Assembly: GCA_039208735.1 (NCBI GenBank)
Contig: JBCCQY010000163.1
Span: forward strand, 1-21,584
Source: Myxococcota bacterium
GTDB taxonomy: Bacteria > Myxococcota_A > UBA796 > GCA-2862545
DNA: 21,584 nucleotides
Reading direction: 5' to 3'
Part shown: positions 294-21,584 of the stretch, in pieces
How positions within the stretch are numbered: position 1 is the first letter of the stretch
Layout of the letters: each line of letters begins with the position of its first letter
Program-made: the position numbers and the translations under genes
The notes under the pieces: model-generated
Seen by the model: the letters and a program-made list of their open reading frames with translations, nothing else
Database searches by the model: none
What the model was told of the DNA's origin: nothing

Positions 294-1634
294 ATGGCCT
301 CGAGGCACGCGTTCGTTGCGGCCACGCGGTTCGGGCTCGGCGCCCGGCCCGGCGACCTGGCTGCGATCGACGCCGTAGGACCCAAAACCTGGGTCCTCAA
401 ACAGCTCGACATCGCGCCCCAAGACCCGCGACTCGCCTCGCTCTCGTCCACCCGAGACGCGGTCGATGCGTTCGATCAAGCCCGCAAGAGCGACGCCGAC
501 GTCAAGTCGATGATGCGGGAGGCGCTACGCGACCGTTTTGCAAGCGAGCAAGCGGCCCACCTCGTGACCGCCGCGGCGAGCGAGTTCCCGGTCTACGAAC
601 GCCTCGTCTCGTTTTGGGCGAACCACTTCACGGTCTCCATCGCTCGGCGTGAGGTCCTACCCATTGCGGGCGCCTTCGAACGAGATGCGATTCGAGCCAA
701 AATGCGAGGCACCTTCAGCGAGATGCTCGTGGCCAGCACCCGCCACCCCGCGATGCTCGCCTACCTCGACAATGCCCGTTCGATCGGGCCTGGCTCTCCC
801 GCAGGAACCCGCAGCGGCCGCGGCCTCAACGAGAACTTGGCCCGTGAGGTGCTGGAATTGCACACGCTGGGCGTTGACGGCGGCTACACCCAGGCCGACG
901 TCGAAAACCTGGCCAAGATCTTGACCGGCTGGGGGGTCGACACCGGCCACAACGCCATGCGCATGGACCATGCCCCATCGCCGAATGCCTTCCGGTTCAA
1001 TCCTCGGCGCCATGAACCAGGCCCCAAAACGCTCCTCGACGTGCGATACCCCGGTGGGGGCGAAGCGGACGGCCTTGCGGCCCTGCGGAAGCTCGGGCGC
1101 CACGAGGCCACCGCTCACCACATTGCGACCAAGCTTGTGCGTCACTTCGTCGCCGACGACCCACCCGCCGCCGCAGTTCGCTCGGTCGCCAAAGCCTTCC
1201 GGGATTCCTCGGGCCATCTCCCCACGGTCCACCGGGCGGTGGCGGAACTCTCGGTCGCCTGGTCCTCGGGACTCACGAAGGTGAAGACCCCCCGCGAACT
1301 GGTGGTGTCGACAGCCCGGGCACTCTCCTACGAAACGCAAGGGTCCCCAATGCTCGCCGCCTGCCGGTTCTTGGGTCAGCTGCCCTACGAAGCCCCATCC
1401 CCGCAGGGCTGGCCCGACCGGGCGGAAGATTGGCTCGCTCCGGAAGCCCTGCTTACGCGACTCGACTGGATCGAACAGGTCGGAAAAGCCGCCGGTCCCC
1501 TCGACGGTCTCGCCATCGCCGACCAGGTGATCGGCCCCGTGATGAGCGCCAAGACCCGCGCCGCAATCGCCAAGGCACAACGCCCCATGACCATCGCTTT
1601 GCTGCTCGCCAGCCCCGAATTCCAGAGGAGATGA
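294..1634 (+). CDS. DUF1800 family protein
   Basis: 446 aa; RBS GAGGAGG upstream; family motifs ERLVSFWANHFTVS, HPAMLAYLDN, NENLAREVLELHTLG, YTQADV, KVKTPRE, C-terminal SPEFQRR; directly followed by DUF1501. Confidence 0.93.
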   Translation: MASRHAFVAATRFGLGARPGDLAAIDAVGPKTWVLKQLDIAPQDPRLASLSSTRDAVDAFDQARKSDADVKSMMREALRDRFASEQAAHLVTAAASEFPVYERLVSFWANHFTVSIARREVLPIAGAFERDAIRAKMRGTFSEMLVASTRHPAMLAYLDNARSIGPGSPAGTRSGRGLNENLAREVLELHTLGVDGGYTQADVENLAKILTGWGVDTGHNAMRMDHAPSPNAFRFNPRRHEPGPKTLLDVRYPGGGEADGLAALRKLGRHEATAHHIATKLVRHFVADDPPAAAVRSVAKAFRDSSGHLPTVHRAVAELSVAWSSGLTKVKTPRELVVSTARALSYETQGSPMLAACRFLGQLPYEAPSPQGWPDRAEDWLAPEALLTRLDWIEQVGKAAGPLDGLAIADQVIGPVMSAKTRAAIAKAQRPMTIALLLASPEFQRR

Positions 1635-1636
1635 CC

Positions 1637-2806
1637 ATGCAGCGACGCCAGTTCCTCGCCGGGATGGGTGCAGTGGGCGCCTCGGGCCTTCTCGCACCCG
1701 CATGGGCCGGCCCTGGGTCCACGTCTGCGCCAAACGCGCGCTTCGTCGTGCTCATGCTGCGGGGAGGTCTCGACGGGTTGGGCGTGGTCCCCGCCTATGG
1801 CGACCCTAAATACCGCTCCGCGCGGGGCGACCTCGCCCTTCCGGCTCCTCGTCAAAGCGGCGGCGTTCTCGATCTCGACGGCACGTTCGGCCTGCACCCC
1901 GCCCTTGCCCCCCTGATGCCGCTGTACAAGGACCGCGCGCTGCTCGTGGCCCATGCCGTCGCTGCGCCGTACCGCGAGCGTTCGCACTTCGATGGGCAAA
2001 ACGTTCTTGAAACGGGCATGACGCAGCCCTTCGCATCCCGGTCGGGCTGGCTCGCTCGGACGCTTGCGCGTTCACCAGGCGGGATGGCCATCGGCAAGAC
2101 GGTCCCCCAACTCCTGCGTGGCCCCAACGCTTCGTTGTCGCTCGATCCTCTGCGAACCCCTCGCCCCGACGCCCCTTTGCATCGCGCGGTGGCCGAGCTT
2201 TACGCAGGCGATCCCACGCTCGCGGCGGCCCTGGAACGAGGCCAAGCCGCCCAACGCCTTCTTGCCCGCCACGCCGAGCCACGCGCCAGCCGCCGCGCCG
2301 ACGTCGCCAAGTCCGCTCGCGTCGCCGCCCGACTCCTTTCCGACCCCGAAGGTCCCCGAACCGCCACGTTCTCGATCGGCGGCTGGGACACCCACTCGGG
2401 TCAGAAGGGCCGCCTCGGCCGTCAGCTCGGGGTGCTCGCCTCGGCGTTCACGAGCTTCGCCGAAGCCATGCCCCCCGACGTATGGGCCAAGACCGTCATC
2501 CTCGCGGTGACCGAGTTTGGTCGGACGGTACAACCCAACGGGACGGGCGGAACCGACCATGGCGTCGGGGGCGTGGCGCTGGTGGCCGGAGGAGCGGTCG
2601 CGGGCGGACGTGTGGTGGCGGATTGGCCAGGCCTCGCCGAACGCCAGCGCCTCGAAGGACGCGACTTGCGACCCACGACCGACCTTCGCGCGCTCATGAA
2701 AGGGTTGCTTCACGATCACCTGCGAGTCAGCCCAAGCCGGCTCAACGACGACGTCTTCCCCGGTTCCACGAGCGTTGCACCGCTGCGAGGCCTCATCCGA
2801 GGGTAG
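1637..2806 (+). CDS. DUF1501 family protein with Tat signal peptide
   Basis: Start refined to ATG 1637 (RBS GAGGAG 1625-1630; alternative ATG 1631 overlaps the upstream stop). MQRRQFLAG twin-arginine signal; motifs LRGGLDGL, FGLHPAL, RSHFDGQ, GGWDTH, TEFGRT, NGTGGTDHG, DLRPTTDLR. Confidence 0.92.
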   Translation: MQRRQFLAGMGAVGASGLLAPAWAGPGSTSAPNARFVVLMLRGGLDGLGVVPAYGDPKYRSARGDLALPAPRQSGGVLDLDGTFGLHPALAPLMPLYKDRALLVAHAVAAPYRERSHFDGQNVLETGMTQPFASRSGWLARTLARSPGGMAIGKTVPQLLRGPNASLSLDPLRTPRPDAPLHRAVAELYAGDPTLAAALERGQAAQRLLARHAEPRASRRADVAKSARVAARLLSDPEGPRTATFSIGGWDTHSGQKGRLGRQLGVLASAFTSFAEAMPPDVWAKTVILAVTEFGRTVQPNGTGGTDHGVGGVALVAGGAVAGGRVVADWPGLAERQRLEGRDLRPTTDLRALMKGLLHDHLRVSPSRLNDDVFPGSTSVAPLRGLIRG

Positions 2807-6045: not shown

Positions 6046-6577
6046 CACGGAGGTCCACGGTGACGTCGGCCGTCATGGCCGGCTTAATGGTGACCCCAAG
6101 GTAGGTCGGGATCTCGATGCCGTGCTTGGTCGTGTCGAAGGGAAAGCTCGCCTTGATCTTGTAGAGATCCTTCGACCGCTTGATCGAGTACTTCACCGGC
6201 ACGTCAAGCTCGACCCCGTGGGCTTCGAATTTTGCGGTCACTTCGCCGTTGACCGTTCCCGCCTCCGGCCACTGAATGTGGTCCTTCGCCAGCGTGAGCA
6301 CCACGTTCGGGTAGGTCGCGGTTTCCACGTACTTTTCACGCATGTGCTGATCGCGAAGACCAATGCCCGTCTCGACCGTGTCCATGGGCACGGTGAACAC
6401 GAGGGTCGTGCCCTCATCTTTGAGAGTCAAGTCACGGGTCGTCCCATCAAACGTCAGGAATCCCGGAGACCCTTCAGCGTGGAAGACGACCTTCGGCTTC
6501 CCCTCGATCGTGGTGCCCGCGAGCGCCACGTTCGTCCAGAGTAGGCTTGTCGCCAACACCATCATCCACTTGCTCAT
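6035..6577 (-). CDS. YceI family (polyisoprenoid/lipid-binding) exported protein
   Basis: ATG 6577 with RBS GGGAG; signal peptide; hallmark TGIGLRDQHMREKY..TATYP, HGVELDV, and KHGIEIPTYLG motifs. Confidence 0.9.
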   Translation of the reverse strand: MSKWMMVLATSLLWTNVALAGTTIEGKPKVVFHAEGSPGFLTFDGTTRDLTLKDEGTTLVFTVPMDTVETGIGLRDQHMREKYVETATYPNVVLTLAKDHIQWPEAGTVNGEVTAKFEAHGVELDVPVKYSIKRSKDLYKIKASFPFDTTKHGIEIPTYLGVTIKPAMTADVTVDLRDAS

Positions 6578-6665
6578 TCGAGTCTCCCTGTGTTGTGCCG
6601 GTGGCCCCGAAACGGGACAACGAGGCGATGTACAACGTGTTGGAACCGCGACGCAATGTCCGTGT

Positions 6666-6715
6666 TTCTCGTCCTCCAACGGCTTTACACATCTCAACAA
6701 CGTTGGAGACGAGAA
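6666..6715. repeat. inverted repeat/hairpin in the divergent yceI / Rieske-ThDP intergenic region
   Basis: TTCTCGTCCTCCAACG (6666-6681) pairs with CGTTGGAGACGAGAA (6701-6715): 15 bp with one bulged C and a 19-nt loop. Confidence 0.7.
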
Positions 6716-6758
6716 CCCCGGGTCACAAAATCGCAATGCGAGGGGAATGGGGCGTTCG

Positions 6759-8717
6759 ATGGCAGAGCTTGAATGGGAAAAAGTCCTGAGTCTTGAAGAC
6801 CTCGCGGAGGGTCGGGTCAAGCCTGTGACCTGCCGGAGGCGCACGGTTTGCATGACCCACTTCCAGGGCCAGTACGCAGCGCTCGACAATCGCTGCCCCC
6901 ACCAGGGGGGGCCGCTGGGTGAAGGGTCGATCGAGAAGGGTTGGCTCCGCTGCCCGTGGCATGGCTGGGACTACCACCCGCTCACCGGGAAATCCCCGGC
7001 GGGACACGACGATGGCGTCGCGACATTCCCCGTAGAGGTCCGGGACGACGGGGTATACGTCGGCTTTGAGGTGGAGGCTCCGCACGAGGCCACCGTGACC
7101 GACGTGATGGCCGAGACGTTCACGAACTTCGGCATTCGCTGGGTATTTGGCATGGTCGGCCACTCCAACCTCGGCCTCGCCGATGCCCTGCGTCGCCAGG
7201 CGCAGGACGGCAAGCTCCGGTACGTGGCGATCCGCCATGAAGGCGCCGCGGCGTTCGCGTGTTCCGCCTACGGCAAGCTCACGGGTCGTCCCGCGGCCTG
7301 TTTGAGCATCGCAGGCCCCGGAGCCACCAACCTGCTCACCGGCCTGTGGGATGCCAACGTGGACCGCGCTCCCGTGCTCGCCCTCACTGGGCAGGTCGAC
7401 ACCCAGGTGATCGGTCGAGGGGCGTTCCAGGAAGTGGATCTCAAGGCGGCTTTCGGCGATGTGGCCACGTTCGCCGCCGATGTTCAGCGCGACTCCAACC
7501 ACGCCGAACTCGCGGTGCGCGCCATCAAGTCCGCGATCCTCACCGACAGCGTCTCCCAATTGGTGTTCCCCGATGAAGTGCAGCGACTGCCGGCTGCAGG
7601 GCGCCCCAAGACGCCGAAGGGCCGCATCACCACCCGCCGGCCCAAACCAGATGCCGATCAGCTTGAGACGGCACTCCAGGCGCTGGCGACGGCCAAACGG
7701 CCATGCTTCATCGTGGGCCATGGTGCTCGGTACGCAATGGACCGAGTGCGGGCCCTCGCCGAGCACCTGAAATGCCCCGTCATCACCACGTTCAAGGGCA
7801 AGGGCCTCATCAGCGATACCCACCCGCTCGGCGGGGGCGTTCTCGGCCGGTCCGGAACCCCCATCGCGTCGTGGTTCATGAACGAAGCCGACCTCTTGGT
7901 CGTGTTCGGTTCCAGCTTCTCGAATCACACGGGAATCTCCGGAAAGTTTCCCATCATCCAGGTGGATTACGACCCGATGGCCCTGGGCAAGCACTACCCC
8001 ATCGACTTCCCCGTCTACGCCGAGATCGGTCAGGCGGCCGACCAGATGCTTGAAGCCCTTCGCTCCCGAGGCCACGCCAGCATCGACCACACCGCCGAGA
8101 TCGCCGAGCGGTGGCACATTTGGCGCGCTGAAAAGCAGCGGCGACTTCAGGAGGAGCGTGGCCAGGGGGTGTCGTCGGCGGCCATCTTCGATGCGCTGAC
8201 CCGCCTCACCCCCGCTAATGCCGTGGTGGCGGTCGACGTCGGCAACAACACCTACTCGTTCGGCCGGTACTTTGAGGCCAAGGATCAAGCCGTATTGATG
8301 TCGGGCTACCTCGGCTCCATCGGCTTTGCGTTGCCGGCCGCCATGGGGGCATGGGCGGCGACCCAAGAGGTGGGATCGGAATGGTACGGCCGGCCTGTGG
8401 TCTCGGTGAGCGGTGACGGCGGCCTCGGCCAGTACCTCGCCGAAGTGACCACGCTGGTGGCGCACCAGATGAACATCGTCCACGTCGTGCTCAACAACAG
8501 CGAGCTGGGCAAGATCAGCAAGGAACAGCGGTCGGCGGAACTCGACGTCTGGCAAACACGACTCGTCAATCCAAGCTTTGCCGCCTTTGCCGAAAACTGC
8601 GGGGCCAAAGGCATTCGGGTCACCGAAAGCGGACAGCTGGACGCGGCCCTCGCCGAAGCCTTCGCCCACGCTGGCCCCGTGGTTGTCGAGATCATGGCCG
8701 ATGTCACCCTGATTTAG
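6759..8717 (+). CDS. Rieske [2Fe-2S] domain fused to a thiamine-diphosphate-dependent enzyme (pyruvate oxidase/acetolactate synthase family)
   Basis: N-terminal CPHQGGPL...CPWHGW Rieske motifs; ThDP-family motifs IRHEGAAAF, GPGATNLLTGL, FQEVDL, TTFKGKG, MSGYLGSIGFALPAAMGA, GDGG...LNNSELG. Start ATG 6759 (alternative 6747). Confidence 0.92.
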   Translation: MAELEWEKVLSLEDLAEGRVKPVTCRRRTVCMTHFQGQYAALDNRCPHQGGPLGEGSIEKGWLRCPWHGWDYHPLTGKSPAGHDDGVATFPVEVRDDGVYVGFEVEAPHEATVTDVMAETFTNFGIRWVFGMVGHSNLGLADALRRQAQDGKLRYVAIRHEGAAAFACSAYGKLTGRPAACLSIAGPGATNLLTGLWDANVDRAPVLALTGQVDTQVIGRGAFQEVDLKAAFGDVATFAADVQRDSNHAELAVRAIKSAILTDSVSQLVFPDEVQRLPAAGRPKTPKGRITTRRPKPDADQLETALQALATAKRPCFIVGHGARYAMDRVRALAEHLKCPVITTFKGKGLISDTHPLGGGVLGRSGTPIASWFMNEADLLVVFGSSFSNHTGISGKFPIIQVDYDPMALGKHYPIDFPVYAEIGQAADQMLEALRSRGHASIDHTAEIAERWHIWRAEKQRRLQEERGQGVSSAAIFDALTRLTPANAVVAVDVGNNTYSFGRYFEAKDQAVLMSGYLGSIGFALPAAMGAWAATQEVGSEWYGRPVVSVSGDGGLGQYLAEVTTLVAHQMNIVHVVLNNSELGKISKEQRSAELDVWQTRLVNPSFAAFAENCGAKGIRVTESGQLDAALAEAFAHAGPVVVEIMADVTLI

Positions 8718-8759: not shown

Positions 8760-9566
8760 ATGGCCGAACCGCGCACCGGCGTGCGCCTCGAAAAGAAGCT
8801 GCTCGACCACGTTGGCCGGGCGAGCCAAGACTTCCGCCTCATTGAACCCGGCGATCGCATTCTGTGCGGATTGTCTGGGGGCAAAGACAGCTACGCAATG
8901 ATCTGGCTGTTGCGTCTCGTCCAGCGCCGGGTGCCCTTCGACTTCGAACTCATCGCTTGCAACCTTGATCAAGGGCACCCGGGCTTTCCCCAATCGGTGA
9001 TTGCGGATTGGTGTGCCGAACACGGGTTCGAGTCCCACATGCTCCAGCGCGACACCTACTCGGTCGTGCTCGACAAGGTGCCGGAAGGCAAGACGTTTTG
9101 CTCGCTGTGTTCCAGGCTGCGACGAGGAATTCTCTACGACACAGCCGTCGAACTCGGATGCAACAAGATTGCCCTTGGTCATCACCGTGACGACGTGATC
9201 GAGACGCTGCTCCTCAACCTCATGTTCTCGGGCCAGCTCAAGGCTATGCCGCCACGCCTGCACAGCGATGATGGTCGCAACATCGTCATTCGCCCTCTGG
9301 TGTACGCAGACGAAGCCGAAATCGCCCAGTACGCCCAGGAAAAGGCCTTTCCCATCGTGCCTTGCAACCTGTGCGGTTCGCAGGAGAACCTGCAACGACA
9401 GCAGGTCAAGCGCATGGTTCATCAGTGGAGCCTGACCAATCCTCGAGTCAAGGGCAGCCTGCTTGCCGCCATCGGCAACGTTCGGGCGACGCACCTGCTC
9501 GACCGTGATCTTCACGCGAAGTTGGGACTGTTCGAGCCACGGGGCGACGACCCGTCGATCCCGTAG
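8760..9566 (+). CDS. ttcA: tRNA 2-thiocytidine(32) synthetase TtcA
   Basis: PP-loop SGGKDSY; CSLCSRLRRGILY; KIALGHHRDD; LKAMPP; IRPL; IVPCNLCGSQENLQRQQVK. Confidence 0.96.
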   Translation: MAEPRTGVRLEKKLLDHVGRASQDFRLIEPGDRILCGLSGGKDSYAMIWLLRLVQRRVPFDFELIACNLDQGHPGFPQSVIADWCAEHGFESHMLQRDTYSVVLDKVPEGKTFCSLCSRLRRGILYDTAVELGCNKIALGHHRDDVIETLLLNLMFSGQLKAMPPRLHSDDGRNIVIRPLVYADEAEIAQYAQEKAFPIVPCNLCGSQENLQRQQVKRMVHQWSLTNPRVKGSLLAAIGNVRATHLLDRDLHAKLGLFEPRGDDPSIP

Positions 9567-11138: not shown

Positions 11139-12485
11139 ATGATGCTGGTTTCACCCTTCGCCCTGTTGTGGATGGCCGCCTGTTCGCCGGATCCGCTGTT
11201 GGCGCTCGACGTCGAACAGCCCGTCGACGTGACGCCACCCGTCTGCCAGACGTCGGCGGACTGTGATGAGGGCTTCGCTTGCTGGGTCGACCCCACGTTG
11301 CTGCAGAGCCGTTGCGTGCCCGCCTGTGAAGAAGACTCCGACTGCCCAGGGGACCAGCTGTGTCGCACCATGTTCGACACCACCGCCTGCGTGGACCCGC
11401 TCCCGGAGCCCCCGCCGGATGTGCCCCGGGTCGATGGCGCCACGCCCCAAGTCCCTGCCGATGTGCAGTGCATCGGCCCCGTGTCGGGGGCCGTGGACAT
11501 TCCATTCACCGTCGAAGACGACACCACCTCGGTGATGGTGGTTCCCTTTGCCACCGACGGAGGCCAGGTCAGGCCTTCGTCCTTGCTCCTGCCAACCGAT
11601 CAGGTGCTTGCCATTCAGGGTTCCGCGAGCTTTCTTGGCGTGACGGCCTCGCTGCTCGGCTACACCGCTCCCCTGTTCCTGCCCCAGAGCCCGATCGCCG
11701 AAGAGGTCCTCATCCCTGGTTCGCACGTCTACACCGTGGTCGCGGAGACGCAGGAATTGTGTTCCTACGTGCTCACAGAAACGGCCGATGCAGGCCGTCG
11801 GCTCGACCTGAACCTGTACTTCGTAGGGCTTTCCGATCTCGATTCGACGACCGCCGCCCAGGACGCCGACCTCGCCAACGCCCTCAATACCTTCGCCGAA
11901 GTCTACGCCAGCGCAGGCATTCAGCTTGGGGATGTGCGGGCGTTCGACGCCTCCCCCGAGGTGGCCAACGAGTTTGCGGTGATCGACGATCGGGCCGATC
12001 TCGACGAGCTTGTGGCCACCTCGCAGCCTCCCGGCCCCGATGATGCGTCGCTCACCAGCGTCAACGTGTTCTTCGTTGCCGCCATTGCCATCCCCGACTC
12101 GGGCGCGATCGGGATTTCGCAGGGCATTCCCGGCCCGGTCGGTCTGCACGGCACGCCGGGAAGCGGAGTGGTGCTGACATCCGAGTTTCTTCGCCTTGGG
12201 TCGTTGAACGACGCTACGCTCGGTGCTCAGCTCACGGGCGTGGTGCTCGCCCACGAGGTGGGTCACTGGCTGGGGCTCTTCCACACGTCAGAACTCGCCG
12301 GCGGCGTGCAGGACCCCATTCCCGACACGGTCGGATGTGATGACATCGCAGAGCGATTCGCCAACGATCAACTCGACGGGTGCCCCGATCGCAACAATCT
12401 GATGTTCCCGGTAGCCGATCCGTTCGCTCGCGACCTCACGGCCCAGCAGGGGGGCGTCTTGGTGGCCAACCCCGTGACCCGCTAG
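11139..12485 (+). CDS. lipoprotein zinc metalloprotease (metzincin, M43/pappalysin-like) with Cys-rich N-terminal repeats
   Basis: Lipobox-like WMAAC; repeats CQTSADCDEGFAC and CEEDSDCPGDQLC; HEVGHWLGLFHT zinc motif; DPIPDT; Met-turn NNLMFP. Confidence 0.88.
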   Translation: MMLVSPFALLWMAACSPDPLLALDVEQPVDVTPPVCQTSADCDEGFACWVDPTLLQSRCVPACEEDSDCPGDQLCRTMFDTTACVDPLPEPPPDVPRVDGATPQVPADVQCIGPVSGAVDIPFTVEDDTTSVMVVPFATDGGQVRPSSLLLPTDQVLAIQGSASFLGVTASLLGYTAPLFLPQSPIAEEVLIPGSHVYTVVAETQELCSYVLTETADAGRRLDLNLYFVGLSDLDSTTAAQDADLANALNTFAEVYASAGIQLGDVRAFDASPEVANEFAVIDDRADLDELVATSQPPGPDDASLTSVNVFFVAAIAIPDSGAIGISQGIPGPVGLHGTPGSGVVLTSEFLRLGSLNDATLGAQLTGVVLAHEVGHWLGLFHTSELAGGVQDPIPDTVGCDDIAERFANDQLDGCPDRNNLMFPVADPFARDLTAQQGGVLVANPVTR

Positions 12486-12802: not shown

Positions 12803-12920
12803 CGTTCACCTCGACGGAGGGCGAAGACACTCTGTGGTTCGGTCGACGGCCGGCGTACTGTAGGCCCTCCTCAAGGTCTCCCCCCACCCAAGCGATGTGG
12901 CGCGAGAGGAGGACGCGCCG

Positions 12921-14348
12921 ATGACCTGGACCAACGAGGACCAACGGTGGGCAGAGGAGTCCGGTATTGACCTGTCGCATCTCGACGCCCAGCTCATCCG
13001 AATCCGGGACGGCCAACAACCCACAGTGGTGGATCGACCCTGCACGGTGGGCGACGGCATCGAGACCTGCGACGAGGCCACGCGCGATGCTTATGCAGCC
13101 CGAGCCCGGCAGGCCGAAGGACGGGTGACCCATTTCGTCCCCGCATCGGGGGCGGCCTCACGCATGTTTCGGGCCATTGCAAGTGCCCATCCAACCACGG
13201 ATCCAAGCGCGCTTCCGGCCTCGGCGCGCCAGGCCTTCGAAGGACGCGACCGGCTCGCGGTGGGCATTGGACTCGGCCAAGCGACGCTGACCCAGGCCTT
13301 TGCCGCCTGGATTGATCAACATCGGTACGCTTCGATGCCCAAAGGGCTTTTGCCCTTCCATCGGTACGGAGAACAATCCCGGTGCGCCGCCGAAGAGCAC
13401 TTCCGCGAGGCGGTTGCGGTTTCGAGCCAAGACGGACGGGTCACGGTGCATTTCACGGTTCCCGAAGCGTTCGAAGATGCGTTTCACGCCATTGCCCGAG
13501 CCCATCCCCACATCGCCTTCACCACCTCGGTCCAGCGACGGAACACCGACACGGTGGCCACCGATGCCTCGGGTGCCGTGTGGCGTGGCGAGGACGGCCG
13601 GATCCTGTTGCGACCAGGCGGTCACGGAGCCCTGCTCCACAACCTCCACGCCCTCGGCGCAGACCTCGTCACCATCAAGAACATCGACAATGTCGTCCGA
13701 GATGAACCCCGACCGGTCGTGGTGGCCTGGCGACGGGCGCTCCTCGGCCGCCTCCTCGAACTCGAGCAAGCGGTTCACGAACAGCTCCGTGGCCTTCGTG
13801 ACGGCACCGTCGAGCCGTCCGCAGCCCTGCAGTTCGCCGCCACACAGTTCGGGCGAGCCCCTAAGGAAGGCGACCCCATGGCCGCCGCCATGGACGCACT
13901 CAACCGACCCCTACGCGTTTGCGGAATGGTGCGAAACGCAGGCGAGCCGGGCGGAGGTCCGTTTTGGGCTTACACGTCAGATGGTTCTTGCACCAAGCAG
14001 ATCGTTGAATCCGCACAGATCGACCGGACCCAAGCCCCCCAGGCGGCGGCCGTTGCAAAGGCCACGCACTTCAATCCCGTCGATCTGGTGGCCAGCCTCC
14101 GCGACGGAGATGGCAAGCCCTTCGACCTGGCGCGCTTCATCGACGATGAACAGTGGTTCGTGGTCGAAAAGAGTAAGCATGGGCGCTCGTTGATGGCCCT
14201 CGAACGCCCTGGTCTTTGGAACGGGGCCATGGCGGGATGGAACACGGTGTTCGTCGAGGTACCGGCCGAGACCTTCCATCCGGTCAAGGAACTCCGTGAC
14301 CTGCTTCGACCCGGCCATGTCGCGGTCACCCCTACGGTTCCTGCCTAG
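12921..14348 (+). CDS. DUF4301 family protein (nucleotide-sugar transferase-like fold)
   Basis: ATG 12921 with RBS GAGGAGG; FVPASGAASRMF, PKGLLPFH, RPGGHGALL.NL, IKNIDNV, NRPLRVCGMV.N.GEPGGGPFW, THFNPVDLV, ALERPGLWNGAMA.WNTVFVEVP..TF.PVK. Confidence 0.93.
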   Translation: MTWTNEDQRWAEESGIDLSHLDAQLIRIRDGQQPTVVDRPCTVGDGIETCDEATRDAYAARARQAEGRVTHFVPASGAASRMFRAIASAHPTTDPSALPASARQAFEGRDRLAVGIGLGQATLTQAFAAWIDQHRYASMPKGLLPFHRYGEQSRCAAEEHFREAVAVSSQDGRVTVHFTVPEAFEDAFHAIARAHPHIAFTTSVQRRNTDTVATDASGAVWRGEDGRILLRPGGHGALLHNLHALGADLVTIKNIDNVVRDEPRPVVVAWRRALLGRLLELEQAVHEQLRGLRDGTVEPSAALQFAATQFGRAPKEGDPMAAAMDALNRPLRVCGMVRNAGEPGGGPFWAYTSDGSCTKQIVESAQIDRTQAPQAAAVAKATHFNPVDLVASLRDGDGKPFDLARFIDDEQWFVVEKSKHGRSLMALERPGLWNGAMAGWNTVFVEVPAETFHPVKELRDLLRPGHVAVTPTVPA

Positions 14349-14508: not shown

Positions 14509-16230
14509 ATGCCCCAAGTCGTCACGGTCGACGAGGAGCGGCCGCTCGACCTGCATCTTGACGTTCCGCCTCGAACCCGGGTCGCCATGACCGGCCTTCC
14601 CACCGGGGCCCGCTTCATGGAGGCCGAGCGTCGGCTCGTCTTCACCCCCGATGCAATCCAAGGGCCTGCGACGCACGCGGTCACCGTCGTCCTGCGCAAC
14701 GACAACGAGGTGCGCGAACACGCCATGTCGCTTGTCATCCGAGATGCGGTCGCCCTACCCCCCATCCGGGTGACCGACCGGGAGGTCCTTACAGACGTCA
14801 CGATCCTTCACCTCGAACAAACGACGACGGCGTGGCTCGACGTTGAAAAGCGTTCTTTTGAAGCGACCTTATCGATCCCCCACCCCGCGTCGGAACGACT
14901 TCCCGTCTTGGTCCGCATGCACGGGTTTGGCGACGCAGCGTTCGACATCGAACCCTCTTTCGATGCCATCGTCCTGCGTCCCGAGGACCCGGACACGACC
15001 TACTGGTGGGGCTACCAGGCCCCCAATGGCACGTTCGTGCCCTACACCCTTCGCCGGGTGCTCCACCTCCTCGGTTGGGTGATCGAACAGTTCCCGCAGG
15101 CCGATCCGGAGCGCGTCCGGGTGGAAGGGATGTCGATGGGGGGATTTGGCGCGCTGATGTTTGGGGCTCATCACGCGCGGCACATCGCCATGGTCGATGC
15201 CCGGCTCAGCCAGCCGGTTCCCCTGCTTCACCGGGACCACCGCATCCGGTCGCTCCGCGATGTGTGGGGCCCCACGCCCGCCCCTCGGGGACCCGATCCC
15301 TGGAAGCTCGGTGACTTCACCTGGCTCCTACGGCATCAACCCGCTACGCGAGAGCAGCTTTATTACCTTCGCAACCGCAAAGATGACTCCGCGATCTTCT
15401 TTCGCAGTTTTGGGGGACCGAGCCCGTTCACCCGACGCTCCACGGTCACCGCACTCGCCGAATTCACGGCAGGGCACGTGGTGTACTGGGATGAAGGCAG
15501 TCACACCGAGCCCGACCCGCTGCTTCATGAGGACTGGTGGGAATCCGAGTCGGACCTGCTGCTGGACGGCACGACCTTCGTGGCTCGTTCACTGTCGTTT
15601 CCGGCCTTTACCCAAGCAAGTGACGATTCGGACCCCGGCGACGGCCAACGAAGACCGGGCGTGCCCCTGCGCCAGGATGGCGACTATTCAGGTCATGTCG
15701 CGGTTCCTTACGATTCAGGCTGGTCGGGCGACCGTACCGGCACGATCAATCATGGTTTGCGATGGGACGCCCGACGCCTCGTCGACACGTGGGAACGTTG
15801 GTCGGTGCCCCTTCGAACCAAGGGTGGGCAACCTCGCACGGTGGCCGTCACCCCGCGCCGGGTCCAGGCGTTTCACCTCAAGCCCGGCGAAGCGGTGGAT
15901 TGGCAGTATGGCACCCAACAAGGACGGGTCCGCGCCGATGCGGCGGGCGCGGTGACGATTTCCGATCTCCCGATCGACGGGCAATGGCGGAGCCTCGACC
16001 TCTTCCGGGTGGATGTCGCTACGAACGACGACGGCGTCGCCCTTTCCGATCCTTCTTTCGGGCCACCCGCACCCGGCGACCGTTCGGCTGCTTCGCAATG
16101 TAGGCCAGCGAACGAGCAAACTCGGGATGGGCACGCAACCCCTCGACCGAATCGAGATCCCGATTTGGGGCGCGCAACTCCGCATTGTCGAACATCGCAT
16201 GGATCGTACGATGACATGCCGCACAAATAA
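14509..16230 (+). CDS. Ig-like domain + alpha/beta-hydrolase protein, probably exported; true start likely upstream (about 14402-14413)
   Basis: TGLPTGARF...VFTP (putative Ig/cadherin-like); HGFG; nucleophile elbow GMSMGG (15127-15144); candidate catalytic His in WDEGSH; an in-frame signal-like stretch lies upstream of ATG 14509. Confidence 0.78.
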   Translation: MPQVVTVDEERPLDLHLDVPPRTRVAMTGLPTGARFMEAERRLVFTPDAIQGPATHAVTVVLRNDNEVREHAMSLVIRDAVALPPIRVTDREVLTDVTILHLEQTTTAWLDVEKRSFEATLSIPHPASERLPVLVRMHGFGDAAFDIEPSFDAIVLRPEDPDTTYWWGYQAPNGTFVPYTLRRVLHLLGWVIEQFPQADPERVRVEGMSMGGFGALMFGAHHARHIAMVDARLSQPVPLLHRDHRIRSLRDVWGPTPAPRGPDPWKLGDFTWLLRHQPATREQLYYLRNRKDDSAIFFRSFGGPSPFTRRSTVTALAEFTAGHVVYWDEGSHTEPDPLLHEDWWESESDLLLDGTTFVARSLSFPAFTQASDDSDPGDGQRRPGVPLRQDGDYSGHVAVPYDSGWSGDRTGTINHGLRWDARRLVDTWERWSVPLRTKGGQPRTVAVTPRRVQAFHLKPGEAVDWQYGTQQGRVRADAAGAVTISDLPIDGQWRSLDLFRVDVATNDDGVALSDPSFGPPAPGDRSAASQCRPANEQTRDGHATPRPNRDPDLGRATPHCRTSHGSYDDMPHK

Positions 16231-16327
16231 GCTCGATGTCGTGCTTGTCTTTGCGTCGTGTCTTGAGGTGATGACGGGTGAGTACGAGATCCTCGCCCGC
16301 ACGCTCACAGAGGGGGCAATGGTTCAT
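16019..16327 (-). CDS. small HNH-type endonuclease (YisB-like)
   Basis: ATG 16327 overlaps the upstream stop (ATGA); CPLCER...TRHHL...CAACHRTIH.MF.N.EL...YIAKQP; basic tail. Confidence 0.85.
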   Translation of the reverse strand: MNHCPLCERAGEDLVLTRHHLKTRRKDKHDIELICAACHRTIHAMFDNAELRAPNRDLDSVEGLRAHPEFARSLAYIAKQPNGRRVRVARKKDRKGRRRRRS

Positions 16328-19257
16328 GGTGGTTGCGTAATCGGTGAACGCGTCGAATGCGAGCGCCACCATCGCTCGAAGGCGGGCAGGTGATTCGGCG
16401 CTCGTGCAGTCAGAAACGCGGCCGTCGCCTCAACCGCAGTGCGTTCGAGCCGCCGATGCAACGCGAATCCGGCCCGTCCGGGGCTGGTCTCCCGAGCGGA
16501 AAGCGACACCCCTTCCTCGGCCAGCACCACCGGATCGGTCACCGGATGCATCTCCTCATGGAAGACCTGCATGAGCACGTGCTCCGGCGGCATCGCAAGC
16601 GAGGTCGCCACCCGGCGCACCCCACCCACCGTCGACGCCCGGGCCTGCCGACCCAGCGCGGGCACATCGACGATGACCAAGGGTGGAGGCCGCAAGCCTT
16701 GGGGGGCCCACAAGTCCGCCCGCAGCCCTTCGAGCTGCTGCAGCACATCATCCGGCAGTGAACCAAACCCCTCCACCGTGGTTTCGCGCTGCGCCTCGAG
16801 GCCGGCGATGACCGCCCGGCACAGGCGACGTCCCGGTCCATCAGCCAAGGGGGAGGGCGGCGTTCGAAGCGCCTCGACCAAGGCGTCGAGTTCAAGATGG
16901 GCGAGGCCCAAAGCCTGAAGCACCAGACGATTCTCACAACGCGGCCAGGCGTCGCTCAACGCGCGGGCCCACGGCGCGTCGACCCGAGGACCGGGCAGCG
17001 CCGCAACGTCCGATCCGAGATCGGCTGCAGCGAGGACGGCAAAGAACCGAGCCGGTCCTTCAGCGTGGGCAATCCTTACTCCCGGTACCTTTGGATCCCT
17101 GGGCCAAGGCAGCCAACCCTCGGGACCACCCAAGACAGGCCACTTGTCACGAGCAAGCACTCTCTCCATGCCCGAGCGGTCGGCAATGAGAAGGTCTTGG
17201 GGCCGAAATCTTGGACCAACGCAAAGAAATGCACGCCCTCGATTCGACAGCAGGCGACCGATGGCCGAAGGCACGCGTGGTAGCGCGGCTCCGAGCCATG
17301 CCACGTCGTAGGTCCCCGAAAGATCGAAGCGAGCCGCGGGGCCTCGAACGACCACCGTGACCTGTGGCCGATCGGCCAAAGCGGCTCGAAGGCTATCGGC
17401 GGTCACCCCATCGGGGGCCACCGCCACAACCTCACCGCGGGGCCCCACGAGGGCAGCAAGCACCGCCGCCACATGCGGGGACTGGGCCGTGAGATCGACG
17501 GCCCGCTCGCCCGGCGCGGGGGCCAGCGCCTGCATCCCGATGAGCCACGCATCCAACCCCACCGTCGTGGGAGGCCACCCCTCAGCCACCGGCTCAGGAA
17601 TGCGATTGGCCAACATGGCTTGGGCGTGCGCGACGGGAAGGTACCGATGAGGCGGCGCGTCGAAGAGCGCCCCAAGCAGCGCATCGGCGATGACGAGCCC
17701 GCGGTCGAGCCGCGCCCGCACCGCGGTCTGAAGGGCGACCATCCCCCGGTCACGAACGTCGAGGCCAATCGGTACCGCAAGGGGGGCCGCCGTGGCCTGT
17801 GGGCGGGCCTGGCGGCCCTTGGCGAGGAGCACGTCTCGGGTACGCCGCGAGAGGTTGTCGACCTCGGTAAGCTGACTACGAGCGAAGACGCGGCCGCGGG
17901 GGTGGTCAGGGCCTTCCGGGCTGCGAAACCGCTCGTGAATGCGTCGTACGAGCGGACCATATTCGTCGTGCATCCAGCGAACCCGCGCTTCGTAATCGAA
18001 GACCGCGGACGGATCGAGATGCTGGGCGCGAAATGGCCCGTCATACCAGCCTCGCCACCAGGTGGGATGGTGGAACCGGGTTCCATAGGCCGTGGCGTAG
18101 TGGTCCTGCGCTTCATGAACCTGCGAACCTGGGTAGAGCCGAAAGGGATCGACGGACAGCCACCCGTGGCTCGAAGGGCCCGATAGGAACAGCTCCCGAA
18201 CAAAATCGAGGGTCTCCATCGCCGTCTGTAGGGTCTCACCAGGATGGCCCACAATCACATTGGTGGCCCAGTTCAGTCCGTGCTTCTGCGACAGTCGAGC
18301 GAGTCTGCGCACTGCATCGAGGTAGCGATCCGGCTGATTGCCCTTCTGCATGATGCGCAGCATCGTCGGACTGCCGCTTTCGAGTCCGATGCCAATGGCG
18401 AAGCGAGCCCGTCCCAACAGATGGATGTCTTCATCGTCAAGGTCGTCGGACCGTGTCAGGGTCCAAAAGCCCATGGGCAATTGATTTCGCGCCACGATGC
18501 CTTCGAGCACCTCCCGTCGCCACCGCCGACGGAATCCAAACAGTGGATCCGCAAGGTTGATCGTCCATCCCGACAAATCGGTAAACCGTGCCAGTCGGTC
18601 GAGTTCGTCGAGCGCTCGTTCGGGGCGATAGGCACGCCATTGGTAGCCCGACTTCGCGCGTTCCATACAGAATGCACAGCGATAGGGGCAACCTCGGGAC
18701 AGGTAGATCTGGAGCTTGCGCCCGATTCGGGTAGCGTGAGGCCAATACGCGTTGAGGAGTTCCCACCGATAAGGCGGTAATTCGTCGAGATCGGGCACCA
18801 CGCGGGACGGGGCAATCCCAGGTTCGACCGATCCGCCCCCGAGTAGCCCCTCGACAAGGGTTCGCATCTCGAGTTCCGCTTCGCCGGGAATCACCCGATC
18901 GAACGGGCCCAGCAGGTCCTCTGGAAGGGCCGAAGCATGGTACCCCCCCGTGACCAAGGGCACGTGCGGGTACCGTTCACGCAAGAGACGCGCGAGCGAA
19001 AGCACCCGAAGCAATTCGAAACTCGAGTACGCCGAAACCCCGATGAGGAGGAAGGGTCCAAGGTCGTCGAGACGCCGTTCGAGGTCGGCAACGTCGCCGC
19101 CCTCGTAGTTCAGATCGAGGATTTCGACCCGAACCTTGGTGTGCTCGATGAGGTATCCGCCGATGGCCACAAGGTGGGGCACCCCGAAGTCGACATCCTC
19201 CCAACGCAGAATGCCAGGGCTAATCAATAGAACTGCGGGCCTGCGGTTAGGACCCAT
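16324..19257 (-). CDS. B12-binding radical SAM protein fused to a PCMT-like methyltransferase domain and a C-terminal HExxH domain (977 aa)
   Basis: Start refined to ATG 19257. B12-binding region (PHLVAIGGYL, EILDLN, LVTGGYHAS, GEAE); SRGCPYRCAFC (18667-18690); IGLESGS..ML..M.K; IVGHPGET; PCMT-like PGERAVDLTAQSPHVAAVLAALVGPRGEVVAV...YDVAWLGAA; FHEEMHP (16546-16560). Confidence 0.9.
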   Translation of the reverse strand: MGPNRRPAVLLISPGILRWEDVDFGVPHLVAIGGYLIEHTKVRVEILDLNYEGGDVADLERRLDDLGPFLLIGVSAYSSFELLRVLSLARLLRERYPHVPLVTGGYHASALPEDLLGPFDRVIPGEAELEMRTLVEGLLGGGSVEPGIAPSRVVPDLDELPPYRWELLNAYWPHATRIGRKLQIYLSRGCPYRCAFCMERAKSGYQWRAYRPERALDELDRLARFTDLSGWTINLADPLFGFRRRWRREVLEGIVARNQLPMGFWTLTRSDDLDDEDIHLLGRARFAIGIGLESGSPTMLRIMQKGNQPDRYLDAVRRLARLSQKHGLNWATNVIVGHPGETLQTAMETLDFVRELFLSGPSSHGWLSVDPFRLYPGSQVHEAQDHYATAYGTRFHHPTWWRGWYDGPFRAQHLDPSAVFDYEARVRWMHDEYGPLVRRIHERFRSPEGPDHPRGRVFARSQLTEVDNLSRRTRDVLLAKGRQARPQATAAPLAVPIGLDVRDRGMVALQTAVRARLDRGLVIADALLGALFDAPPHRYLPVAHAQAMLANRIPEPVAEGWPPTTVGLDAWLIGMQALAPAPGERAVDLTAQSPHVAAVLAALVGPRGEVVAVAPDGVTADSLRAALADRPQVTVVVRGPAARFDLSGTYDVAWLGAALPRVPSAIGRLLSNRGRAFLCVGPRFRPQDLLIADRSGMERVLARDKWPVLGGPEGWLPWPRDPKVPGVRIAHAEGPARFFAVLAAADLGSDVAALPGPRVDAPWARALSDAWPRCENRLVLQALGLAHLELDALVEALRTPPSPLADGPGRRLCRAVIAGLEAQRETTVEGFGSLPDDVLQQLEGLRADLWAPQGLRPPPLVIVDVPALGRQARASTVGGVRRVATSLAMPPEHVLMQVFHEEMHPVTDPVVLAEEGVSLSARETSPGRAGFALHRRLERTAVEATAAFLTARAPNHLPAFERWWRSHSTRSPITQPP

Positions 19258-20210
19258 GGTGCAGCGCTCGCCAGAGCAGGGGTTCGGGATGGGTGTGGTC
19301 GCCGTAGGTCGCCAAGGCCGACTCCTTGCAGCCGCCCTGACACGACCGCTCAAAGGCGCAGCCGCGGCACATCTCAGGCACGCTCCGGACGAACGTGGCG
19401 GGGTACTCGGAGGCCATGATCTCGTCCCAGTCTTGCTCGACAAGGTTGCCGAGCACTCCGGTTGACAGATTACAGCTTCGCACATTGCCGCGAACGTCGA
19501 CCACCAGGTTGGGGGAGGACGATCCAGTGGAGTAATGCCCAAATCGCACGTGGGGATACCGTTCGGGTCGGACCAAGCAGGGGGGGGATCGGCATGGCGG
19601 TTCCCACTTCGATGCCGTACGCGCGGCCCACTCGGTCCGCGACCTCGAGATCTGCTTCGATCGCCTCGATCGAAGGCATGAGCCGCTCGACGTAATGCAC
19701 TGCGCCCCCAGTGGGCGACATCCGGTTGTAGGACACGGCACGAATGCCGAGTACGTGACACAGTTGCATCACCCGCTCGAGCTGGCCTTCGTTCCGCGAC
19801 ATGGCCACGTAGCAGCACTGCACTGGAACCTTGGCTTCAACCAGTTCAACCGCTGCGCGCAGCGTGTCGTCAAAGCACACCGCTCCTTTGAGTTCGTCAT
19901 GCAACGTACGGTCGCCCGCCAACAGGGTGAGTTGCACCGCGCCAACACCAAGCTCACCAAGCCGCTTGGCGGTGGAAGCCGGGACATGGCTGCCGTTGGT
20001 GATGATGGTCACCGAGGGCACCAAGGCGCAGGCGTGGGCGACCAGATCGAGGGCGCCTGCGGCCAACAGAGGCTCTCCGCCGGGGTCCTCGGGCGCAGCC
20101 CCCCACACGTTGTAGCCGTGGGCACAGCGATGGTCGCAAGCTGCGGTCAGCTCGAAATCCAATCGAGGGACCTGGCCTGGGGTCGGATCAGCACTTGGAA
20201 CGTCCGACAC
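19247..20210 (-). pseudogene. radical SAM/SPASM domain protein (PqqE-like peptide maturase type), frameshifted and degenerate
   Basis: Track ORFs 19470-20210 and 19247-19741 join by removing one base of the G8 run at 19580-19587 (gives ...MPIPPCLVRP...). Cluster motif reads CDHRCAHG; GGEPLL, ITNG and HDELKG are present; SPASM segment GNVRSC...CRGCAFERSCQGGC. Confidence 0.85.
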
Positions 20211-20670
20211 CTTCCTTTACCTTGGCTTGCCGTATGAGGTGTCCGAGGTTCATGCGCTGCGCCATGTCGGCGGTCGGGCTGGGCGTCAGTCGGTCGACGA
20301 GGTCGGCGGGAAGCGCACCATCGGCCGCCAGCTGTTCCAGGATCTCGTCGCGGGACGGCACCGATGGGGTCACCGTGCGCGAGGACGAACTCGTCGCGCC
20401 CGTATCCGACGTGTCCCCAGTCACCGCAAAGTCGAGGCACGCTTGTACGCCCGTATCGGCGGTGGTTGCCGTAGAGGCCGTCGACGCGGTCGACGCCGTA
20501 TCGGTGCCGGTTTCCGGGTTCCCGGTATCCGCCGTGATCGTCGTGTAATCGAGGCAAGTGGCGAAATCGAGGCACGGGCCAAAGATTCCACAGGAAGTCG
20601 AGGCGAGTCCGAGCATGGAGAGAATAGAGGGGGGAAGCGGTTTGCACAGCCCCCGCCCACTCGCGCGCAT
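20188..20670 (-). CDS. putative lipoprotein with three C-L-D-[F/Y] motifs; candidate radical-SAM-modified precursor
   Basis: ATG 20670 (alternative 20616): MRASGRGLCKPLPPSILSMLGLASTSC-GIFGPCLDFATCLDY...ACLDF; Thr/Asp/Ser/Gly-rich spacers; helical segment RDEILEQLAADGALPADLVDRL; overlaps the radical SAM start. Confidence 0.75.
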   Translation of the reverse strand: MRASGRGLCKPLPPSILSMLGLASTSCGIFGPCLDFATCLDYTTITADTGNPETGTDTASTASTASTATTADTGVQACLDFAVTGDTSDTGATSSSSRTVTPSVPSRDEILEQLAADGALPADLVDRLTPSPTADMAQRMNLGHLIRQAKVKEGVGRSKC

Positions 20671-20682
20671 TCGGAGTTCCCC

Positions 20683-21584
20683 ATGCACCCTCCGATCGAG
20701 CAACTTCGACGTTGGATCGGCGTCCGGTTTGGCACGCCCGCAACCCTGGAGCCGCTTGGCGAAGGTGAAGACTATTGGGCCGTGGTTGCCGATGGGGTCC
20801 GGGTCTACCGCTTTCCCAAGGCGGAGCACGTGGTGCGTCAGCTCGAAGCCGAAATCGCCGTCCTGCCGAAACTCCAGCACCTCCCCTGCCCCGTTCCCAG
20901 AATCGATGCGATAGGCCGACCCGATGGACGCGACGACCTAGCCTGGCCCTTCCTCGGCTACCCGATGCTGCGCGGGGTGTTCGCCAGCCGCGACACGGTG
21001 CCCAATCCCGACGCTTTCCTTGACGAACTCGCCGAGGTTCTTGCGGTCCTTCATACAACCCCGGAGGTGTCTCCGTTCAACGATGCGCCTGGCGTGGCTT
21101 GGGAGCCGGAACCCATCGAGGTGGACCATCCCGTCGGGGTCCGCGTGGTGCAGTGGCTCGAGGCGCACCCGCGAAATGACGGCCCCCACGCCTTCTGTCA
21201 CGATGACCTTGGGATGGGGCATGTGCTCATCGATCCCGACTCGAATCGCATCACAGGCATCATCGACTGGGGCGATTGCCGATTCACCGACCCTGCAGTG
21301 GACTGGATCGGCGCCGTCTACCACTGGCCCTCGCTCGTCGAACGGCGCCTCCCCGCTGAGACGCTGCTTCGTACCTGGAGCTGGGCCCTCCAGTACGGCC
21401 TAAACGACTGTCTCGAGGGTGCCGACTGGTCGGTCCTCGAAACCCGATTGGCCATCGCAGAGAAGGCGTTCGACGAACCCGTGCTGACGGGGATCTCCAT
21501 GGCCGATAGCGATGGCGCAACAGCACGGAGATCGGCATGGCGAATCGAAGTCGCGAGGAGTGGCGGGAGCTTGTCTGGCAGTGG
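20683..21584 (+). CDS. aminoglycoside phosphotransferase (APH/choline kinase-like) family protein; no stop within the window (not in ORF track)
   Basis: Manual translation from ATG 20683 (RBS GGAG): ...LEPLGEGEDYWAVVADGVRVYRFPK...LEAEIAVLPKL..LPCPVP...FLGYPMLRG...LAVLH...FCHDDLGMGHVLID...ITGIIDWGDCRFTDPAVD. Confidence 0.88.
   Translation, partial: MHPPIEQLRRWIGVRFGTPATLEPLGEGEDYWAVVADGVRVYRFPKAEHVVRQLEAEIAVLPKLQHLPCPVPRIDAIGRPDGRDDLAWPFLGYPMLRGVFASRDTVPNPDAFLDELAEVLAVLHTTPEVSPFNDAPGVAWEPEPIEVDHPVGVRVVQWLEAHPRNDGPHAFCHDDLGMGHVLIDPDSNRITGIIDWGDCRFTDPAVDWIGAVYHWPSLVERRLPAETLLRTWSWALQYGLNDCLEGADWSVLETRLAIAEKAFDEPVLTGISMADSDGATARRSAWRIEVARSGGSLSGS
21462..21584 (+). mobile_element. possible left end of an IS66-family element with start of a TnpA-like ORF at 21537
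   Basis: GAAGGCGTTCGACGAACCCGTGCTGACGGGG resembles IS66-type termini (usually GTAAGCG...). 75 bp later, RBS GGAG + ATG 21537 gives MANRSREEWRELVWQW, like the N-terminus of IS66 accessory TnpA proteins. Only 123 bp are visible. Confidence 0.5.

Follow-up and report, generated by a model that had tools for sequence, protein, structure and literature searches.

The window analyzed in this study, the whole 21,584-nucleotide stretch that makes up one entire contig (JBCCQY010000163.1; G000:C163) of a 9.4-Mb Myxococcota genome, carries on its minus strand a decayed copy of what appears to be a real, conserved protein-modification cassette of Myxococcota, similar to those for peptides that are synthesized ribosomally and modified post-translationally (RiPPs) and apparently undescribed. 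The cassette combines a precursor protein, a radical S-adenosylmethionine (SAM) enzyme with a SPASM domain, a cobalamin (B12)-binding radical SAM enzyme, and an HExxH domain, and it offers four unnamed protein families together with an obvious substrate. In the reading that we favor, at a probability of roughly 0.7, intact cassettes would modify Pro-Cys-Leu cores of their own precursors in the cytoplasm, followed by export and lipid anchoring, with the window holding a broken copy. No description of the cassette was found in curated families or in the literature, from which most subscription papers lay outside the search, and "GPCL" did not occur in a set of 16 papers; this agrees with the first-pass annotation of this DNA, which had not recognized the combination as a characterized pathway.

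Four genes are arranged in series: the precursor gene (20188..20670), the radical SAM/SPASM gene (19247..20210), a 977-aa open frame fusing B12-binding, radical SAM, protein isoaspartate methyltransferase (PIMT)-fold, and HExxH domains (16324..19257), and an HNH/HlpB-like gene (16019..16327). The three overlaps reported in the first-pass annotation are indeed present, at 20188-20210 (precursor stop and GTG start of the SPASM gene), 19247-19257 (SPASM stop and ATG of the B12 gene), and 16324-16327 (ATGA). Pfam returned no domain for the first gene, Radical_SAM and SPASM for the second, B12-binding, Radical_SAM, and PCMT for the third, and a sub-threshold HNH match for the fourth, bearing out the earlier domain calls. 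Among the NCBIfam models scored against the window genes and one intact orthologue, all at the family level stayed below cut-off, and the generic SPASM-domain model TIGR04085 alone passed.

Conservation of the cassette

Of 60 relatives, 14 have an orthologue matching the fusion over nearly its whole length (48-63%). Defining tier-1 SPASM matches by an E value below 1e-100 to the intact SPASM query from genome G002, we found them in 26 of 181 other genomes of the class and 27 of 400 other genomes of the phylum, and 43 tier-1 loci from 43 genomes were compared for synteny. The B12 gene directly followed the SPASM gene in all 43 (gap of 0-326 bp from the SPASM match), and the HExxH domain was present in 37/37 loci with sufficient downstream DNA; counting the locus of G001, it was fused in 25 and a separate gene in 13 of 38. 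One to three tandem precursor genes stood upstream of the SPASM gene in 41 of 42 loci, 39 by pattern and two by the follower profile (one of the latter, L039, being a weak match at a contig edge), the remaining locus having no upstream DNA; the exception, G115, carries two precursors on another contig. Extra precursors distant from the enzyme genes were also seen in some genomes. Homologues came from sources named Myxococcota, Myxococcales, Nannocystaceae, Persicimonas sp., and Bradymonadia.

In a sample of 401 genomes, a tier-1 SPASM match occurred in 28, a precursor profile match in 29, and both in 27, so that the profile matched in 2 of the other 373; the informative side of this co-occurrence is its near-empty negative side. 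One of the two profile-only genomes is G352, with the gene at the edge of a contig; the other is G403, where the match is weak and the SPASM enzyme more distant. The lipoprotein thus accompanies the radical SAM genes in other genomes across the phylum, the association on which the first-pass annotation had made its proposal depend. Clustering of open reading frames (ORFs) from the window and 50 loci yielded the cassette clusters with their antisense shadows, small kin-specific clusters, and one further cluster in 7-8 related loci; among the conserved neighbors there was no metal-resistance, transporter, exported protease, or other biosynthetic gene.

The earlier proposal of a four-gene operon stands for the precursor, the SPASM gene, and the B12 fusion, which are conserved together, and fails for the HNH gene, which occurred in 0/43 tier-1 loci. 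That all four genes form one functional unit, for instance a toxin/addiction module or a mobile cassette, would fit the ATGA coupling in the window and the same HNH neighbor beside the cassette remnant in G001. Against it, G003, a genome without a cassette match, carries the HNH gene, and the gene was not found in the cassette-bearing genomes G002, G013, G023, and G030, which makes such a unit very improbable. The gene, which scored 52.4 bits against HlpB (NF058586; cut-off 130), is best regarded as a passenger outside the system.

Precursor proteins and their cores

The precursors share a layout consisting of a short K/R and hydrophobic leader ending in an invariant Cys, 1-10 cores, linkers, and a C-terminal follower; leader, C-L cores, and follower are the only conserved parts. 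Among 53 precursors, the first Cys falls at position 15-35 in 51, a K/R n-region is present in 49, and a hydrophobic stretch in 50. Because Leu follows 208 of the 244 Cys beyond the first in these aligned sequences, the C-L repeat is not attributable to chance. The first-pass annotation had described the core as CLD[F/Y]; the C-L repeat is retained, and the shared core is instead (V/I/L)-G-P-C-L-(S/D)-P, most often beginning with V, with P at -1 in 74% and G at -2 in 71% of 210 sites and with P, A, L, E, V, or T at +4 from the Cys. Linkers between cores are Asp/Pro/Thr/Gly-rich and 5-47 aa long, and the follower reads helix-G-x-L-P-x-D-V-x-x-R-L. A search of the precursor family returned low-complexity matches only (96 rows).

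The window precursor, 160 aa as now read, conforms to this plan with a lipoprotein-like leader, three C-L cores, a Thr/Asp/Ser linker, a follower, and a tail of ~30 aa exceeding the length of its orthologues. Its predicted lipidation site is Cys27 (A-S-T-S-C; 20590..20592), in a column invariant across the 53 precursors. Core 1 (GPCLDF, Cys33) lies at 20563..20580, core 2 (TCLDY, Cys39) at 20545..20559, and core 3 (ACLDF, Cys78) at 20428..20442, and the follower (helix-G-x-L-P-x-D-helix, residues 107-128), the predicted SPASM docking site, at 20287..20352.

The same architecture could be read as that of a mere carrier, from which periplasmic proteases or the HExxH domain would excise the modified cores, freeing them as small diffusible peptides. 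The precursors are multi-core and a zincin-like HExxH domain is always present, both of which would suit excision. The logo, however, shows no conserved cleavage motif flanking the cores, the core spacing ranges from 5 to 47 aa, the conserved neighbors include neither a transporter nor an exported protease, and MYXO-CTERM anchors score above cut-off in two precursors; we consider release improbable.

MYXO-CTERM-like segments were noted in the precursors L119:1834-2301, L120:1989-2354, L035:4362-4991, and L041:3330-4052. In the orphan precursors L119 and L120 (no match and below cut-off, respectively) this segment sits between cores and follower, a position that would leave the follower in the cytoplasm. 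Outside the class of the window, most precursors have longer leaders with two Cys, which in loci L064-L080 run in the order L-T-A-C, a Gly-rich hydrophobic stretch, and then Q/T-G-C; such leaders could invert the topology or double the anchoring.

The SPASM enzyme and its modeled complex

In the intact SPASM enzyme, the CxxxCxxC motif begins at residue 20 of 349, and C239, C254, C274, C309, C312, C318, and C322 are invariant in 119/119 homologues. The CX2CX5CX3C motif and the upstream auxiliary Cys of ranthipeptide/sactipeptide synthases are present in the family. No RiPP recognition element (RRE) was detected on the enzyme, and no small PqqD-type partner gene was conserved among ORFs of at least 80 aa.

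A complex model of the G002 SPASM enzyme with precursor residues 74-135 scored 0.87, compared with 0.01 for the best of three controls; the score mark is reached by 116 of 157 solved pairs and 2 of 215 mismatched pairs and is only roughly valid here, where our own alignments were used and ligands were included. The runs share at least 40% of contacts, with a predicted local distance difference test (pLDDT) of 61-69 for the partner. In the model, the follower packs against barrel helices (residues 142-183), and the Y-G-P-C-L-D-F core (residues 78-84) contacts residues 250-255, 274-276, and 322, corresponding to C254, C274, and C322. The model is consistent with a follower bound on the SPASM barrel and a core beside the auxiliary-cluster cysteines, a predicted placement that resembles the substrate-bound state of CteB, in which, according to the accessible part of the source, an open auxiliary site binds the substrate Cys (PMC8172795). 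Together with the co-occurrence, this controlled model supports the earlier proposal that the first gene encodes the substrate.

The cobalamin-dependent fusion protein

In the 977-aa protein, the B12-binding (aa 35-134) and radical SAM (aa 185-353) domains span 18199..19155 with CxxxCxxC intact, a motif found in 116/116 aligned rows of an alignment that omitted three dead derivatives. Its structure model has a pLDDT of 92, and its B12/radical SAM part matches the folds of TsrM, AprD4, OxsB, CysS, and TokK at 15-23% identity; against NCBIfam, its best score was 80 (cut-off 251). Many B12 radical SAM families act on small molecules or lipids, and AprD4, OxsB, TokK, and CysS are among these best fold matches, which would suit enzymes making a small molecule, lipid, or cofactor, with the lipoprotein as a metal-binding or scaffold partner and not a substrate. 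Such a role appears quite improbable, since no other biosynthetic gene is conserved, the complex model places the core in the SPASM pocket, and the cores are fixed while precursor number and linkers vary freely.

The PIMT-fold domain (core at 17149..17535) reached TM scores of 0.81-0.82, by target, to 2yxe and 1jg1. What we take to be the signature motifs of this fold, the SAM-binding D/E-x-G-x-G-x-G and the catalytic T-I-S-x-P, are degenerate, occurring in 1/116 and 0/116 sequences. The fold implied by the first-pass annotation, which had listed a PCMT homologue among the maturases, is therefore retained, while its role as a maturase is doubtful because these motifs are lost and certain orthologues (L080, P0393, P0371) have no such domain.

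The C-terminal domain (16327..17085) is an unnamed, zincin-like HExxH domain whose HEEMH motif, noted earlier, occupies residues 900-904 (16560-16546). It belongs to a compact unnamed family of 244 representatives with conserved HExxH, Asp+4, HxxxE, and Arg; HExxH was present in 141 of 147 representatives and the later HxxxE in 136, and H176, E177, H180, H210, and E214 were invariant in 34 rows. The ligand spacing applied here (HExxH plus a downstream Glu/His) is the one we assume for gluzincins. No sequence match was found in Pfam, NCBIfam, or PDB, and Foldseek gave nothing at E ≤0.001, a ChlB-HExxH row (8s5f) appearing at E 0.51 with probability 0.18. In the Atlas, the first match named as an alpha-ketoglutarate (alphaKG)-HExxH protein, at 0.84, is a lead only. 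The absence of a fold match does not make the fold new. Both peptidase and alphaKG oxygenase are open candidate roles, and the invariant Arg149 could bind alphaKG. Standalone homologues of ~400 aa (P0435, P0437, P0439, P0441, P0443) carry a C-terminal multi-helix hydrophobic extension.

Proposed mechanism and alternative chemistries

In the proposed sequence of events, the RRE-less SPASM enzyme is predicted to grip the C-terminal follower outside its barrel and to bring the core Cys to auxiliary cluster I. It would then oxidize each core Cys; a thioether is the leading candidate product, if somewhat short of even odds, a heterocycle is a weaker one, and other outcomes make up the rest. A thioether would take the form of a short cross-link with a loss of 2 Da per core. 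The B12 enzyme would likely methylate a Leu or Pro of the core (+14 Da), and the HExxH domain would, by a slight preference, clip the spent follower or else hydroxylate, with the PIMT-fold domain likely serving as a binding domain or a relic. Lgt and Lsp, for which the genome encodes four and two matches, would then yield a lipoprotein whose acidic, flexible tether presents several modified cores and whose role, speculatively, could be metal binding or surface contact. According to the accessible part of one source, cytoplasmic modification followed by lipidation has precedent, including repeated cores (NedA), and its authors expect follower-guided cases (PMC13056109).

The principal alternative on the chemistry keeps the same cassette and has the SPASM enzyme form a thiooxazole-like or other oxidized heterocycle (-4 Da), to which the B12 enzyme would perhaps add an S- or C-methyl group, resulting in a membrane-tethered multivalent metal chelator comparable to lipidated bufferins/oxazolins. 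This is a variant of the favored reading, and its probability falls within the 0.7 given above; on its own, we regard it as rather unlikely. It would account for the single isolated Cys per core and the missing fixed acceptor, and the T-C-Y-x-P cores beside sister enzymes would point to Cys as the common target. A SPASM enzyme annotated as a thio(seleno)oxazole maturase exists (SbtM, TIGR04082), against whose model, however, the SPASM protein P0002 scored 45.9 bits with a cut-off of 350, and the conserved neighbors include no metal-resistance gene. NedA, as described in the accessible part of the source, is a repeated-core lipoprotein with -4 Da per motif (PMC13056109).

Several points weigh against the favored reading of Pro-Cys-Leu core modification followed by lipid anchoring. 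All of its chemical steps are inferred. The precursor profile was derived from the same loci, so the positive co-occurrence is partly circular, kin are not independent, and precursor scoring was limited to 10 candidates per genome. The strict lipobox that we assumed for scoring, [LVI][ASTVI][GAS]C, occurred in just 19 of the 53 precursors, although G/A/S stands at -1 in 50 of them, and for the window precursor the scoring used Cys9, which belongs to the additional N-terminal stretch. The cores show no evident thioether acceptor, because Cys+2 may be S, D, G, T, E, or Q and the Cys-X3-Asp motif is not present in the 210 cores. The usual last SPASM Cys is absent (kept in 1/119), so that the placement of the open site on a given auxiliary cluster is tentative, and the favorable complex score may reflect memory of solved radical SAM-peptide complexes. 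A wide fold search with the HExxH domain placed zincins among the top rows, none at Z ≥8, the best being YbeY (Z 6.8, root-mean-square deviation 3.3, 118 aligned). Finally, thrombospondin-type partners of related SPASM enzymes often hold CLSP in loci that have no B12 gene, which weakens the idea that the B12 enzyme targets Leu. If the favored reading is right, the cassette would probably bring to light a new Cys chemistry, since its core motif follows none of the known thioether rules.

Relation to known systems

The nearest concept is that of the DAG-RiPPs (DybA/DybH, NedA/NedBC), which, as far as the accessible part of the source extends, share with the cassette Cys cores that are sometimes repeated and a maturase encoded beside the precursor and acting in the cytoplasm, and probably also a lipoprotein-type signal and housekeeping lipidation by Lgt and Lsp of the host (PMC13056109). 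The characterized ones are made by multinuclear non-heme iron oxidative enzymes (MNIOs), and the main text contains neither "radical" nor "rSAM" (PMC13056109), whereas two radical SAM enzymes, the HExxH domain, GPCL cores, and the follower belong to the present cassette. Pfam detected no MNIO (DUF692) in the gene unit of the window. Some bufferins also have lipoprotein signals, according to a partly accessible source (PMC12452194).

The thioether-forming maturases CteB, PapB, and QhpD, in the accessible part of the source, likewise combine a SPASM enzyme with a Cys-bearing ribosomal substrate that has several sites, and QhpD acts on a protein subunit (PMC8172795); the complex model of the cassette enzyme likewise places the core Cys at the auxiliary cluster. 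The cassette differs in that an RRE, leader recognition, the Cys-X3-Asp motif, and the last SPASM Cys are all missing, and in adding a lipoprotein substrate and a B12 radical SAM partner. From the spliceases, as described in the accessible part of their source (PMC11414181), it differs in its PCL cores in place of the XYG splice motif, with no conserved Tyr-Gly in the core logo. In the alphaKG-HExxH oxygenases ChlH and PflC (PMC12636437, accessible in part) and the gluzincins, too, a zincin-like fold carries the HExxH motif, with a radical SAM enzyme fused to it or next to it; the cassette domain is set apart by its missing sequence matches and its weak ChlB-HExxH fold row. The B12 enzyme shares the B12-binding and CxxxCxxC architecture and fold of TsrM, CysS, TokK, MgmA, and the RiPP enzyme ApyD, and differs from class B radical SAM methylases in its 15-19% identity and its fusion to PIMT-fold and HExxH domains. 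The TIGR04133 system also sets a SPASM enzyme beside a lipoprotein-like partner, presumably TIGR04134, yet the cassette enzyme P0069 scored 49.9 bits against TIGR04133 (cut-off 425), which was outside the best 25 models for P0002.

A more far-reaching claim, which we would place a little below even odds, is that these are the first radical-SAM-made lipoprotein-RiPP hybrids, in which an RRE-less, follower-guided SPASM enzyme and a cobalamin radical SAM enzyme install a new Cys-derived residue up to ten times along a surface-anchored Myxococcota protein, as part of a broader SPASM lineage, still unnamed, whose members act on Cys of exported proteins (PCL, TCYxP, and thrombospondin-repeat partners). 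If true, lipoprotein-RiPP hybrids would no longer be confined to MNIO and would include radical SAM chemistry, and the follower-guided, RRE-free recognition would supply a short C-terminal tag useful for modifying proteins. It would also point to a surface modification, so far unstudied, among myxobacteria-related bacteria that are mostly uncultured. To this picture the window contributes a decaying allele, the exclusion of the HNH gene, and the docking model.

Decay of the window copy

The SPASM gene of the window is a pseudogene. It carries a change of the third cluster Cys to Gly at 20117 (CxxxCxxG), a 33-codon (99-bp) deletion at 20080/81, a +1 frameshift at 19580, and a Cys-to-Tyr change in the codon 19534-19532, which alters the equivalent of C254, invariant in 119/119 homologues. 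The precursor gene has a 36-bp deletion at 20644/45 (minus strand) relative to strain X2, which has 34 additional letters there, and X3 shows a matching loose end. Read by hand, the additional letters of X2 carry GAGG and an in-frame ATG, restoring an M-P-P-S-K-P-L-P start as in orthologues P0263 and P0259; the native start and ribosome-binding site have therefore probably been lost, and the ATG at 20670 is probably not native.

An assembly error was considered for the broken SPASM gene and rejected. Run X1 showed zero differences from the window over 18758-21200, X1 being possibly the source of the window and so not independent, and the four lesions are of different kinds, including two missense changes at invariant Cys, which argues for true pseudogenization. 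Strains X2, X3, and X4 (mostly 95-99% alike) keep the Cys at 20117, have ~99 more bases at 20080/81, and lack the added base at 19580, in a comparison that covers four of the five lesions, the Tyr codon at 19534-19532 lying outside it. Strain X3 also omits 82 bases at window positions 20807-20890, upstream of the precursor.

The frame of the fusion is open with all motifs kept, yet 13 of 235 conserved columns deviate, compared with a median of 6. No further precursor or intact SPASM copy was found by searches of the genome (93% complete), and the window allele is very likely non-functional and incapable of making the product. Decay is more advanced in G001, of the same genus, where the fusion has lost CxxxCxxC and HExxH and genome searches gave no match for the SPASM enzyme or the precursor. 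Joint function is supported because the window allele and G001 show the system decaying together.

Long open derivatives of the fusion without CxxxCxxC were noted in G001:C48 (L040:4009-6792) and as P0205, P0137, and P0211, in which the PIMT-fold domain is still well conserved (the G001 derivative at 62% to the window); as three separate proteins, these dead derivatives may be kept for another role. Locus L044 (G036:C387) is also damaged, by decay or sequencing error, with a core Cys changed to Tyr in the precursor, odd SPASM substitutions, and a stop in the B12 gene.

The wider SPASM lineage

Distant SPASM homologues (33-40%) form separate branches, and tier 1 is one well-supported side of a quick, midpoint-rooted tree of 60 rows, from which L055, L079, and L084 were left out. 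The tree contains two B12-linked groups only, too few for testing a link between Leu and the B12 enzyme. Among 20 distant loci fetched, seven had lipoprotein-like partners with (T/S)-C-Y-x-P cores, seven had thrombospondin-repeat partners, some ending in a similar follower, four had a related B12 gene adjoining (in two of them a PCL-repeat precursor separates the enzyme genes), and two had no recognizable partner. Judged from these sequences, Cys is the feature common to the partners of the lineage.

In the sister loci L062, L087, L060, L061, L063, L091, and L096, the lipoprotein-like partners stand upstream of the SPASM gene and have a helical C-terminal region as well as P-T-C-Y-x-P or (T/S)-C-Y-E-P cores, and these loci contain no related B12 gene; this branch is a probable second undescribed system. 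The loci L081-L084, L086, L088, and L089 encode thrombospondin type 3 repeat partners with a conserved, Cys-rich PCCGPEC / CLSPCG / CCYDADGD insert and a follower-like C-terminus. A third type (L094:1711-2271, L095:4709-5860) is a PCL-repeat precursor that begins with a leader of the ILARR..F kind, lacks a follower, and lies between the SPASM and B12 genes; no HExxH domain was found in these two loci.

Neighboring genes

The guanine-plus-cytosine content along the window is 61-70%. The other genes of the window (294-2806, 6363-8717, 8760-9566, 11139-12485, 12897-14348, and 14509-16230) appear unrelated to the cassette. They include what we take to be a Rieske protein, a thiamine-dependent enzyme, and a TtcA-like protein, and Pfam further indicated a DUF1800/DUF1501-like pair, a weak M43-like lipoprotein peptidase, a DUF4301 protein, and an esterase-like protein.

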